Source of the DNA: a virus
Lineage: Duplodnaviria > Heunggongvirae > Uroviricota > Caudoviricetes > Straboviridae
Reading direction: 5' to 3' (one strand)
Virus record (IMG/VR): IMGVR_UViG_638275429_000001
Coordinates: 87,740 to 151,739 of that record
DNA: 64,000 nucleotides
A program made the translations under genes and the position numbers. The notes beneath the pieces are model-generated. The model made no database searches and was not told the origin of the DNA. It saw nothing but the letters and a program-made list of their open reading frames with translations. Every line of letters begins with the position of its first letter. Position 1 is the first letter of the stretch. Below, piece by piece: positions 5,437-64,000 of the stretch.

Positions 5437-5459
5437 AAGGCTCCCGAAGGAGCCTTTTT
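5437..5459. terminator. Rho-independent terminator after wac, possibly bidirectional
   Basis: aaggctcc-cgaa-ggagcctt followed by T tract. The loop reads UUCG on the minus strand, which also has a T-rich tail. Confidence 0.8.
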
Positions 5460-5474
5460 CGTATTTCAATAACC

Positions 5475-5557
5475 ATTTTTATCCTTTAAGGCCTAATAGA
5501 TTATATAACCTAAAGGATAAAAGGATAAATTCGAGCTTCGCTCGAACGGCTTCGCCG
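5475..5557. repeat. 45-bp palindromic intergenic element, copy 1, with two GC mini-hairpins
   Basis: Core TTTATCCTTTAAGGCCTAATAGATTATATAACCTAAAGGATAAAA at 5478-5522 is identical to 28040-28084 and 62444-62488. Followed by ttcgagc-ttc-gctcgaa and cggc-ttc-gccg. Confidence 0.97.
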
Positions 5558-5565
5558 GCTAATTT

Positions 5566-5573
5566 TGTAAATA
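5566..5573 (+). promoter_or_regulatory. Probable T4-type late promoter variant (TGTAAATA) for gene 13
   Basis: One mismatch to TATAAATA, about 20 bp upstream of the gene 13 ATG and its AAGGAG SD. Confidence 0.55.
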
Positions 5574-5592
5574 AAAATAAAGGAGTGCAACA

Positions 5593-27472: not shown

Positions 27473-27943
27473 TTAGACTCCAATTGTTTCGAGTGCTGCA
27501 ATAACGTAGCTCTCGATTTCTTTCTTCATCTCTTTTGGTTTTGCGACAGTCCAACGACCATCTTTAACACCAGCAGAGATACGACCCATCAATTTGCCGG
27601 CCAGAACATTAATGTTCGGACCAACAAGGCGATGGATATCCATCAGTTCTTTACCGTTAACGATCGAATTAAACTGATCAACGGTGATTTCTTGTGGCAG
27701 AAATTTCGACAGCATCTCTTTTTCTTTGAGAGCTTCAACCAAATCTTCAGAAGTGTATTTGTTCTCGATTCGATCGTTAATGCCTTTCATCAGGCTCAGG
27801 ATTACTTTACGAACCGATTCGTCATCGGTTGCACGACTTTGGTTAACTTCACCAATGACCAGCCCAAGAAGCTGTACGGCTTTGTTGCCATGTTCACGAC
27901 GAGCTTGGCTGCGAGATTCGGTGATTTGTTCGAACAGTGTCAT
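27473..27943 (-). CDS. GatB/YqeY-domain-like protein (156 aa)
   Basis: GAGGT SD. LLGLVIGEV..DDESVRKVI..EKEMLSKFLPQ..GKLMG follows the YqeY pattern. Confidence 0.65.
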   Translation of the reverse strand: MTLFEQITESRSQARREHGNKAVQLLGLVIGEVNQSRATDDESVRKVILSLMKGINDRIENKYTSEDLVEALKEKEMLSKFLPQEITVDQFNSIVNGKELMDIHRLVGPNINVLAGKLMGRISAGVKDGRWTVAKPKEMKKEIESYVIAALETIGV

Positions 27944-28024
27944 AATGATTACCTCTTGTTGAATTGAGATTATCCTAACACCCATTTGACAATCTTGAAC
28001 AAAAAATTTTCTGGTGCTAACCAG

Positions 28025-28122
28025 TTTGGCCTCGCCAAATTTATCCTTTAAGGCCTAATAGATTATATAACCTAAAGGATAAAAAGACTGTTCGAGCGAG
28101 CTCGAATCGGAGCGAGCTCCGA
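28025..28122. repeat. 45-bp palindromic intergenic element, copy 2, with flanking hairpins
   Basis: Core at 28040-28084. Hairpins tttggc-ctc-gccaaa, ttcgagc-ga-gctcgaa and tcggagc-ga-gctccga. Confidence 0.97.
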
Positions 28123-28184: not shown

Positions 28185-28192
28185 TATTTATA
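28185..28192 (-). promoter_or_regulatory. Late promoter pointing through repeat copy 2
   Basis: Exact TATAAATA on the minus strand, downstream of the gene 25 terminator. Confidence 0.65.
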
Positions 28193-62419: not shown

Positions 62420-62526
62420 GTTTGGCTCTGCCAAACTAGCATTTTTATCCTTTAAGGCCTAATAGATTATATAACCTAAAGGATAAAAAGGATAAATTCG
62501 AGCGAAGCTCGAACTGGCGAAGCCAG
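62420..62526. repeat. 45-bp palindromic intergenic element, copy 3, with flanking hairpins
   Basis: Core at 62444-62488. Hairpins gtttggc-tct-gccaaac, ttcgagc-gaa-gctcgaa and ctggc-gaa-gccag. Confidence 0.97.
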
Positions 62527-62655: not shown

Positions 62656-64000
62656 ATGGCAGATCTGAAAGTTGGAACTACGATAGGTGGTTCTCCTGCT
62701 TGGAACCAAGGTAATTTGCCATTAGTTCCAAGCGGTGATAGAATATTATACAAAGGAGCACGTGTTTACAGTGAATCTGATAAACCGTCTGCCGATGAAC
62801 TGAGTGTTCTGTCAATAAATGGTGGTCGTTTGAAGGGTCAATTACAGATTGATTCAGCATCCGATAACATTTTCGATTTGAACTCAACCGATTCTGGCGC
62901 AGTTTTCATGCGCTATATGCATAACAATAGCAACAAAGCCTACACTGGCATCGACGCGAGCGGGAACTTTTACGTCCGCATGGCTGACGGCGCATCTCGC
63001 GCTGGCATTGCTTTCCAAATTGACAACGTTTCGCAAGACATAACCTTCGGGGCGAACCTGAAAGGTCCTGCCGGCCGTGCATTCTCAATCAACAAAGGCG
63101 ATCAACCGTTCATCCGTGACCACGGCAACGGAAACGTTACAATTTCAGCTTTGTCAAAAGTAGATGGAAACCCTGGTGATCTGTACCTCGGATACAATTC
63201 TGCAGGCATGGTGACCAATACAGTTCGACTGGAAAGTCCGCTGTTTTGGAAGGGTGCGCGTCAACTGGTTGACTCTAATGGTTTCATCCTTCGTTCAGCG
63301 ATGGATAACAACTATTACAACCAATCTGAAGCTGACGCACGTTTTATCCGTCTGAACAATAACACCACGACCGACGGTTTCATCCTGTCGAAAACCGCTG
63401 AATATACTGACGCCGGTCGAAACATGGGTTATTCTGGATTCTATCGCCATAATGGTGTTGACGGATTCTCCGGTTTAACGATGCATGTCGCTCATCCTAG
63501 CTATAGCAACGGAGCATACTCCCGTGGTATCACCTTTGCTTATGGTTCTTCGTCTTATGGTCTTTACACCTATGGTTATGACAGTGCTGGTGTTCGTCTG
63601 GCGAATCAGAAAATCTATACCGAAGCCGATAAGCCGACTCCGCAAGAGTTAGGTGCGCTCGCCGCCGAGGCCAACGCAGTATCAGCTTCCAAACTTCAGA
63701 CCCCTCGTCGTATTTCGCTTTCAAGCGGTGCTTCTGGTTCTGTATTGTTTGACGGCTCTGGTGATGTTGTTATTCCGGTAACAATCGCAAACGACAGTCA
63801 CACGCACAACATTTACGTTAAGAAATCTGGCGACATAATGTCAGGTAACTTGGTTGTTAATGCTGCAGTTGACGCGAATGAATTGCGGGCTGGCGATGCG
63901 ACAACTAAAGCTAGAATTGCTCTGAGTTCGGACACCGTATTCTTCCAAGGTGGTCCTATCGGAACTACCGGTTTGCATAAAATCGCGATGTCTGGTTATA
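62656..64000 (+). CDS. gp36: Long tail fibre distal subunit gp36, extended form, 3'-truncated; absent from the ORF track
   Basis: AAGGAG SD. MADLKVGTTIGGSPAWNQGNLPL matches the T4 gp36 N-terminus; hand translation stays open for 448 codons to the window end. Confidence 0.92.
   Translation, partial: MADLKVGTTIGGSPAWNQGNLPLVPSGDRILYKGARVYSESDKPSADELSVLSINGGRLKGQLQIDSASDNIFDLNSTDSGAVFMRYMHNNSNKAYTGIDASGNFYVRMADGASRAGIAFQIDNVSQDITFGANLKGPAGRAFSINKGDQPFIRDHGNGNVTISALSKVDGNPGDLYLGYNSAGMVTNTVRLESPLFWKGARQLVDSNGFILRSAMDNNYYNQSEADARFIRLNNNTTTDGFILSKTAEYTDAGRNMGYSGFYRHNGVDGFSGLTMHVAHPSYSNGAYSRGITFAYGSSSYGLYTYGYDSAGVRLANQKIYTEADKPTPQELGALAAEANAVSASKLQTPRRISLSSGASGSVLFDGSGDVVIPVTIANDSHTHNIYVKKSGDIMSGNLVVNAAVDANELRAGDATTKARIALSSDTVFFQGGPIGTTGLHKIAMSGY

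Follow-up and report, generated by a model that had tools for sequence, protein, structure and literature searches.

The stretch of DNA analysed here (the window; 64,000 nucleotides) comprises bases 87740-151739 of a 173,591-bp record, the genome of a T4-like Aeromonas phage. The neighbourhood of the repeat described below is 98% identical to Aeromonas phage 31 (genus Biquartavirus, species Biquartavirus 44RR2), and the early-promoter coordinates published for 44RR2.8t (Nolan et al. 2006, PMC1524935) fall on a clear common promoter consensus in this genome. The genome was treated as that of 44RR2.8t or of a near-identical phage. Within the window, a 45-bp core is found with exactly the same sequence at 5478-5522, 28040-28084 and 62444-62488, each time on the + strand; none was expected from 100 shuffles. 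The core consists of 11-bp inverted arms and a 22-bp AT-rich spacer, with the inverted half-sites TTATCCTTT approximately three helical turns apart. All three copies are intergenic and lie between wac and gene 13 (wac|13), between a YqeY-like gene in the uvsY slot and gene 25, and between genes 35 and 36 (35|36). A sequence-only reading of the window had claimed an identical, intergenic 45-mer in one orientation at three sites, and this description is correct. The number of three holds for the window; the whole genome contains six copies, at 2845 (with one mismatch), 30081, 76132 (inverted), 93217, 115779 and 150183, which are spaced 17-46 kb apart and are oriented +,+,-,+,+,+ along the genome.

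The full unit has a size of approximately 115 bp and carries two GC hairpins on each side of the AT-rich palindromic core, in the order outer left hairpin, inner left hairpin, core, optional third half-site, inner right hairpin and outer right hairpin. The outer left and the outer right hairpins are rough inverted copies of each other. At wac|13, the place of the left-hand hairpins of the other copies is occupied by the wac terminator hairpin (5437-5456), which is terminator-like on both strands. It is followed by the core (5478-5522, +; genome 93217) with its arms TTTATCCTTTA and the 22-bp spacer, which corresponds to 31repeatA_4 in phage 31, by a third, direct half-site GGATAAA (5523-5529, +), by the right inner hairpin TTCGAGC-TTC-GCTCGAA (5530-5546), which on the - strand is followed by a T-rich arm and is terminator-like, and by the right outer hairpin CGGC-TTC-GCCG (5547-5557), which was assigned from sequence and covariation. 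Outside the repeat, the neighbouring TGTAAATA (5567-5574, +) is the published predicted late promoter of gene 13, Pl:93280. The copy at gene 25 has a left outer hairpin CTGGT-GCTA-ACCAG (28011-28024; from sequence and folding), a left inner hairpin TTTGGC-CTC-GCCAAA (28025-28039), which is followed on the + strand by a T-rich arm and is terminator-like, the core (28040-28084, +; genome 115779), a right inner hairpin (28091-28106), terminator-like on the - strand, and a right outer hairpin TCGGAGC-GA-GCTCCGA (28107-28122; from sequence). The exact TATAAATA at 28185-28192 on the - strand is the published predicted late promoter Pl:115955, and its late transcripts would traverse the gene 25 copy in antisense. 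At 35|36, the left inner hairpin TTTGGC-TCT-GCCAAA (62421-62435; terminator-like on the + strand) precedes the core (62444-62488, +; genome 150183), which again is the exact 45-mer, and is succeeded by the third, direct half-site GGATAAA (62490-62496, +), the right inner hairpin TTCGAGC-GAA-GCTCGAA (62497-62513; terminator-like on the - strand) and the right outer hairpin CTGGC-GAA-GCCAG (62514-62526; from sequence and folding). The upstream TTTGGC..GCCAAA hairpins reported for the 28040 and 62444 copies, the additional GGATAAA of the 5478 and 62444 copies and the nearby TRTAAATA motifs are all present as had been described, two of the latter being the published late promoters named above.

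Two genes that adjoin window copies deserve mention. The uvsY slot between uvsY.-2 and gene 25 (27473-27985, -) encodes a 170-amino-acid YqeY/GatB-like protein, which matched phrog_1460 (E 3e-30) and the Pfam YqeY model below its cut-off; the Pfam UvsY model had no match in this genome nor in any control genome and is uninformative on the absence of UvsY. After the 35|36 copy (62656-63999), the gp36 of phage 31 is annotated over 4.26 kb (150161-154420); gene 36 of T4 measures 0.67 kb and is followed by gene 37. The annotated length suggests a distal tail-fibre gene that has been fused or has grown considerably.

As such, the repeat is no new find, since GenBank already lists it. The record of phage 31 (AY962392) contains six repeat_region features, "31repeatA_1..6", with the remark "similar to other 31repeatA and to 44RRrepeatA"; they are 61-71 bp each, span the core and the first right-hand hairpin and are located at the same six junctions as found here. 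44RRrepeatA and 31repeatA are thus the same element as the present repeat. The sequence-only reading had counted an earlier description as a known cassette against its proposal, and in part this is the case: a name exists, without a function in the annotation. Neither the papers on T4-like phages that were searched nor a broader full-text search gave a function for repeatA. What is added here is the conservation in Tulanevirus, the concerted change of the copies, the covariation of the hairpins, the face-to-face layout of terminators and the low duplex stability.

All six copies are located at transcription-unit boundaries, four of them among conserved structural or recombination genes (3|2, wac|13, gene 25|uvsY slot and 35|36). 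An ordinary terminator of the upstream gene precedes five of the six copies, and five of six are followed by the downstream gene's own promoter-like motif. The copies at 3|2, wac|13 and 35|36 are in sense to their neighbours and those near rIIA, gene 55 and gene 25 in antisense, which counts against a strand-specific role as RNA.

Outside the window, the surroundings of the first two genome copies were inspected. Beside copy 1, two small genes (L006:1728-2457; genome 3072-3801) match the goF family of modulators of mRNA metabolism (phrog_2980), one strongly and one weakly, and the two adjacent matches suggest a local duplication. Upstream of the gene 55 copy, a 479-amino-acid protein (L191:373-2381; genome 30272-32280) matches phrog_2467 and has no Pfam match; its gene is overlapped by a DprA-like gene for a recombination mediator (phrog_768). 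Approximately 70 bp beyond the same copy lies a decayed partial copy (genome 30179-30212; L001 ~1599-1632), consisting of CCAGGTTTG, CTAGCA and then GCC-AATAGATTA, which has no left arm and has counterparts in UP87 and phage 25. No candidate for a binding protein was recognisable among the genes adjoining genome copies 1 and 2, and a search of the genome for isolated half-sites, as they might occur in a putative operator of the gene for such a protein, gave 8-mers at chance level only.

BLAST against 50,697 phage records retrieved 35 records with the repeat, all from phages of Aeromonas or "Stenotrophomonas", and those examined belong to Biquartavirus or Tulanevirus. A scan for the arm pattern in IMG/VR gave chance matches and already known phages only, a scan with the spacer pattern matched only Biquartavirus and Tulanevirus, and a scan of metagenomes added one further Tulanevirus-like contig and no other lineages. 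Among the genomes of approximately 186,000 prokaryote species (one genome each), there were only two chance matches. A covariance model built from 25 copies recovered all six copies of this genome with 87-127 bits; in Aeh1, phage 65 and RB69 it found only chance-level matches (<=20 bits, arms absent), and in T4 and Acinetobacter phage 133 no copy was found. Rfam 15 contained no matching family; two weak matches had 22-24 bits compared to gathering scores of 47-50.

To compare the copies, three lineages of two genera were used, namely 44RR/31 and UP87/B614 (both Biquartavirus) and phage 25/60AhydR15PP (Tulanevirus). A pattern search in five related records revealed six copies each in phage 31, UP87 and phage 25; it missed one copy of B614 and two of avDM1, and among these are the two wac|13 copies, which are altered. 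In B614 (OP380594), the core at wac|13 (L015:531-742) is interrupted by the 19-nt Nextera/Tn5 mosaic end CTGTCTCTTATACACATCT, which occurs nowhere else in this 170-kb record and is not found in two sister records. An assembly artefact is almost certain, but chance alone is unlikely to have put it inside a repeat with six copies. In avDM1 (OP380606), 16 bp including the whole left arm are missing at wac|13 (L016:653-800), and the record is also cut inside wac; this is either a real deletion or an assembly error. If real, it would mean that a phage remains viable with one of its copies crippled.

Alignment of the outer flanks with this genome by BLAST placed each copy of every lineage at one of the six junctions known from it; all three lineages have the spacing and the orientations (+,+,-,+,+,+) in common. 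Neither new nor empty sites were found in any lineage in the BLAST and pattern comparisons. Site-specific traits are, judged from the alignments, old as well: the third half-site, which is located 8-9 bp further along at four of the six sites, is lacking from genome copies 1 and 5 in all three lineages, and the left-hand hairpins are lacking from the wac|13 copy in 44RR and in phage 25. Within a genome, the 40-bp core is uniform across the copies, the only exception being the one mismatch in copy 1 of this genome. Between the genera, there are six differences in the core, all in the spacer, and the arms show 100% conservation. Since the same six changes cannot have arisen independently at six different sites, we conclude that gene conversion homogenised the copies, a plausible process given how much these phages recombine. 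Movement of sequence between sites is also indicated by UP87, in which the wac|13 copy has left-hand hairpins that match those of its 3|2 and 35|36 copies and that are absent there in 44RR and phage 25. The identity between 44RR and phage 25 amounted to 33-34 of 40 positions in the core (~85%), and to ~49-69% in the hairpin regions and ~49-70% in the outer flanks, which is close to the level that global alignment gives for unrelated sequence. That the core kept ~85% identity while its flanks drifted points to purifying selection on its sequence. Insertions or deletions in the core were found in none of 31 aligned copies, and the linkers on both sides vary in length.

These data bear on the view that the unit is a selfish palindromic repeat, either MITE-like, maintained by gene conversion, or a hot spot of recombination or nuclease action, which brings no benefit to the phage. 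The rough inverted similarity of the outer hairpins resembles terminal inverted repeats, copies are homogenised within a genome and exchange sequence, as seen with the left-hand hairpins at wac|13 of UP87, and a decayed partial copy lies beyond the gene 55 copy. Furthermore, loops flip between orthologous copies, for example from GAA in UP87 to TTC in B614 at the same site, which shows template switching at the hairpins; such flips are the expected product of template switching at any DNA hairpin. However, there is no insertion polymorphism, the same six junctions and orientations being occupied in three lineages of two genera, and no target-site duplication is visible at the ends of the unit. 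No homing-endonuclease gene is entered for either 44RR or 31 in a published table (PMC2993671). The absence of copies from the genomes of the ~186,000 prokaryote species, from other lineages in metagenomes and from T4, RB69, Aeh1, 65 and 133, as well as the contrast between a core that is 85% identical between genera and flanks at ~55%, which points to purifying selection, speak against it, too. We consider a selfish repeat improbable. The small non-autonomous mobile unit that the sequence-only reading had offered as one of its two explanations thus has the fixed junctions and orientations, the missing target-site duplications and the missing copies in hosts and other phages against it and is not upheld.

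The hairpins behave differently from the core. In 31 copies from the three lineages, five of six pairs of the inner left hairpin, five of five pairs of the outer right hairpin and two of seven pairs of the inner right hairpin were changed on both sides; the covariation score observed was reached by none of 500 shuffles, and shifting the partners collapsed the pairing. The two downstream hairpins of the three window copies are as had been described, and the differing, yet paired stem of the second one is borne out over the whole alignment. The pattern of substitution indicates that the flanking hairpins are kept as structures rather than as sequence. For the arms of the core this kind of support is almost absent, since eight of the 11 arm pairs never vary; in phage 25, one inner arm pair was apparently re-formed (A-T to T-A) next to a shifted bulge, which is a single event. 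A GCGAAGC mini-hairpin was considered as a conserved feature and rejected, because other lineages have AGA, AGG, AA or TAAA loops. As single-stranded DNA, the unit folds far better than shuffled sequences on both strands (z -6.1 and -6.4), and the folding as RNA is also good (z -3.8). Whether folded as DNA or as RNA, one strand is about as stable as the other, and the stems contain hardly any pairs other than Watson-Crick ones. Mismatches of the G-T or A-C type, which may give a clue to the strand of an RNA, were counted as three against one in only four clean cases. Taken together, the repeat is, on the evidence of the comparisons, real, far beyond chance and under selection.

A consensus scan of the window copies classified the inner left hairpin on the + strand and the inner right hairpin on the - strand as terminator-like. 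A T-rich core arm tails each inner hairpin, and the predicted terminators face each other over the 22-bp spacer; at wac|13, the two-way wac terminator fills the role of the left terminator. By sequence, the arrangement of an intrinsic terminator, a GC-rich hairpin followed by a T-run on the transcribed strand, is present in the window copies. The earlier statement that promoters and terminators do not explain the element is thus right with respect to early promoters (see below) and has to be amended with respect to terminators, which are predicted on the two strands and point towards each other. Gene 3 (tail completion) starts ~25 nt past the inverted 3|2 copy (genome 76090-76130), and no late promoter of the TAAATA type is located in between in any of the three lineages. 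Expression of gene 3 must therefore depend on transcripts that run on from gene 2 through a terminator and the complete repeat, and any shielding of the copy from transcription cannot be tight. The GC skew merely tracks transcription.

This layout lends itself to an explanation at the level of RNA, in which the unit is a cassette for transcript punctuation or insulation, that is, a two-way terminator or attenuator combined with hairpins that protect the newly formed 3' and 5' ends of mRNAs. The AU-rich loop of the core could then be a cleavage site of the RNase E type, the arms would merely be the U and A tracts of the two terminators, and the near-symmetry would let the cassette work in either orientation. 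The location of every copy at a transcription-unit boundary fits well, as do the terminator scores of the inner hairpins with their T-rich arms on opposite strands, the conservation of the hairpins by structure and not by sequence, the RNA fold (z -3.8) and the transcription of gene 3 through its copy; near-pure Watson-Crick stems are expected if both strands must fold. But dozens of other junctions manage with simple hairpins, and the presence of a 115-bp module at only six of them is left unexplained, as are the invariant arms, the fixed 22-bp spacer with its conserved blocks and the third half-site. Moreover, if the flanking hairpins terminate well, the core is rarely transcribed, and there is no matching Rfam family. 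In our judgement, punctuation through RNA is the main rival of the replication reading given below and a possible though rather unlikely explanation.

Promoters were sought inside and around the unit. None of the six copies is included in the published lists of early, middle or late promoters of 44RR. An early promoter was rejected, since a weight matrix derived from 30 early promoters published for 44RR gave -16 to -1 bits for the six neighbourhoods and 22-59 bits for real sites. A late promoter inside the unit was rejected as well, because GATAAATT in 44RR is replaced by GATAAGTT in phage 25. A sigma-70 scan of the window copies did not find a promoter in the core. On the - strand, however, the spacer of the core contains a perfect TATAAT in both genera, in registers that are 2 nt apart, and TAnnAT is kept in one common register across both genera. 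The arm agrees with the Mot-box consensus of T4 at nine of ten positions (TCCTT for TGCTT). The outer of these Mot-box-like sequences TTATCCTTTA is placed ~14 bp from the -10 element, which is 2 nt too far, and is absent at two sites, including the oriF-like site described below; the inner one is placed 5 bp from the -10 element, about 6 nt too near. Neither a -35 element nor a correctly spaced Mot box belongs to the TATAAT of the core. A middle promoter with an altered Mot box was rejected because of this wrong spacing and because the TCCTT box together with a -10 element was found only once genome-wide.

One may still ask whether the TATAAT fires a short structured RNA or the primer of an R-loop from the - strand, as in oriF and oriG of T4. 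The perfect hexamer in both genera and the TAnnAT in a common register would be accounted for, the RNA would start in a purine-rich stretch, and the primers of oriF and oriG are also made from the - strand, that of oriG being antisense to gene 34 in a manner that resembles what the 35|36 copy would give. The numbers given above argue to the contrary: the core does not reach the scores of published early promoters and does not appear in the published lists, TTATCCTTTA is misplaced both ways with its outer copy missing at the very site that corresponds to oriF, TCCTT boxes do not form a class of promoters in this phage and the sigma-70 scan of the core was empty. Such a promoter is improbable.

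The core has a G+C content of 24% and the flanks have 35-52%. It is less stable as a duplex than 99.8-99.95% of all 45-bp windows of the genome; only 40 loci are this unstable, the six cores included, and many of the others are the upstream regions of early promoters. The least stable windows at oriF and oriG of T4 have values similar to that of the core. Several features suit a site that acts as DNA better than an RNA: the invariant half-sites are about three turns apart, a third half-site is optional, the length of the spacer is fixed, and the core melts easily, is enclosed by predicted inward-facing terminators and is indifferent to the direction of transcription. A protein-bound DNA element, for which the sequence-only reading had named a replication origin among its options, remains the best-fitting interpretation of the repeat that the sequences suggest; the concerted change of the core in all six copies with its arms unaltered agrees with it, too. 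A role in replication is put first because of the six dispersed copies, whose number and spacing are similar to those of the five or more origins of T4, the match of one copy to the junction of oriF and the position of oriG in T4. In the T4 record, oriF is located at the start of uvsY at the junction directly downstream of gene 25, where the copy at window position 28040 is also found, and the 35|36 copy is part of the tail-fibre gene cluster which in T4 holds oriG.

We therefore keep as a tentative proposal, argued from sequence features, that the unit is a protein-recognised, easily melted site at the level of DNA which is shielded from transcription and would most likely be a zone of replication initiation. 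According to this proposal, the unit would be a cis-acting DNA site and neither an RNA gene nor a mobile element. A sequence-specific factor, probably encoded by the phage, would recognise the core, the G+C-rich hairpins on both sides would limit the opening of the duplex to the core, and the predicted inward-facing terminators would exclude transcription from the centre on both sides. The six copies might then be the zones of replication initiation or replisome loading of this phage, a counterpart to the several origins of T4. The stricter version, that the six units are defined origins or loading sites for the replisome or helicase and that each is read by one dedicated, sequence-specific factor, appears unlikely on present indications. 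The weakness of the replication reading is plain: the origins of T4 use middle promoters and have no motif in common, and the positional match is exact at one site only. This exact match to a T4-origin junction at one of six sites was noticed post hoc, and by our own estimate, based on ~250 junctions, it would arise by chance with a probability of ~2-3%.

The choice of replication start sites in T4-type phages is a long-standing question, and six exact, easily melted sites, one of them at the oriF junction, offer concrete places at which origins can be tested in a relative of T4 that can be grown. If the units were indeed origins read by a dedicated factor, the T4 superfamily would have its first consensus origin element. 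If they were punctuation cassettes, they would be a more elaborate two-way version of the usual intergenic hairpins of T4 and of modest interest. On either reading, the repeat is a clean case of concerted evolution in a non-coding phage element whose positions are fixed across two genera.

How does the repeat compare with known systems? T4 has five or more origins, which have no common motif and do not need a dedicated initiator, and the workings of most of them are unknown; oriF and oriG consist of a middle promoter of the MotA type and an unwinding element (PMC3016281). In the T4 record, oriG is located inside gene 34, with a primer RNA from the - strand opposite to the late gene 34, and the primer RNAs of both oriF and oriG are on the - strand. 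The repeat shares with oriF and oriG the dispersed sites, the AT-rich, easily unwound stretch and a -10-like TATAAT on the - strand. Both T4 origins have a textbook Mot box ~12-13 bp from the TATAAT, whereas the repeat is without a properly spaced one; thus, of the two hallmarks of the R-loop origins of T4, the AT-rich unwinding element is found and the MotA-dependent middle promoter is not. Unlike the dissimilar origins of T4, the repeat is one conserved sequence present six times, with inverted half-sites and flanking hairpins. The promoter-early stem-loops (PeSLs) of RB49 and phi1 are intergenic cassettes of a stem-loop and regulatory sequences that recombine with each other (Arbiol et al. 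2010, PMC2839356). They are numerous, contain a consensus sigma-70 early promoter, are located in hyperplastic regions and flank variable ORFans (PMC2839356). Like the PeSLs, the present repeat is an intergenic cassette of a T4-type phage that is repeated and has stem-loops, with two GC hairpins per side; unlike them, it has no early promoter and is present in six fixed copies that are not concentrated in hyperplastic ORFan regions. A similar layout, an extragenic place and a size of ~100 bp also connect the repeat with the RIP/RIB elements of bacteria, although the phage element has six copies. The bacterial REP/BIME elements, to which the IHF-binding RIP/RIB belong, are ~100 bp long, extragenic, located at the ends of transcription units and present in tens to hundreds of copies per host, and in RIP/RIB, inverted palindromic hairpin units are placed on both sides of a central protein-binding motif. 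A match to the IHF consensus was not seen in the core by eye. Without passing their defining tests, the repeat is closest to the PeSL and REP/BIME cassettes and to the origins of T4.
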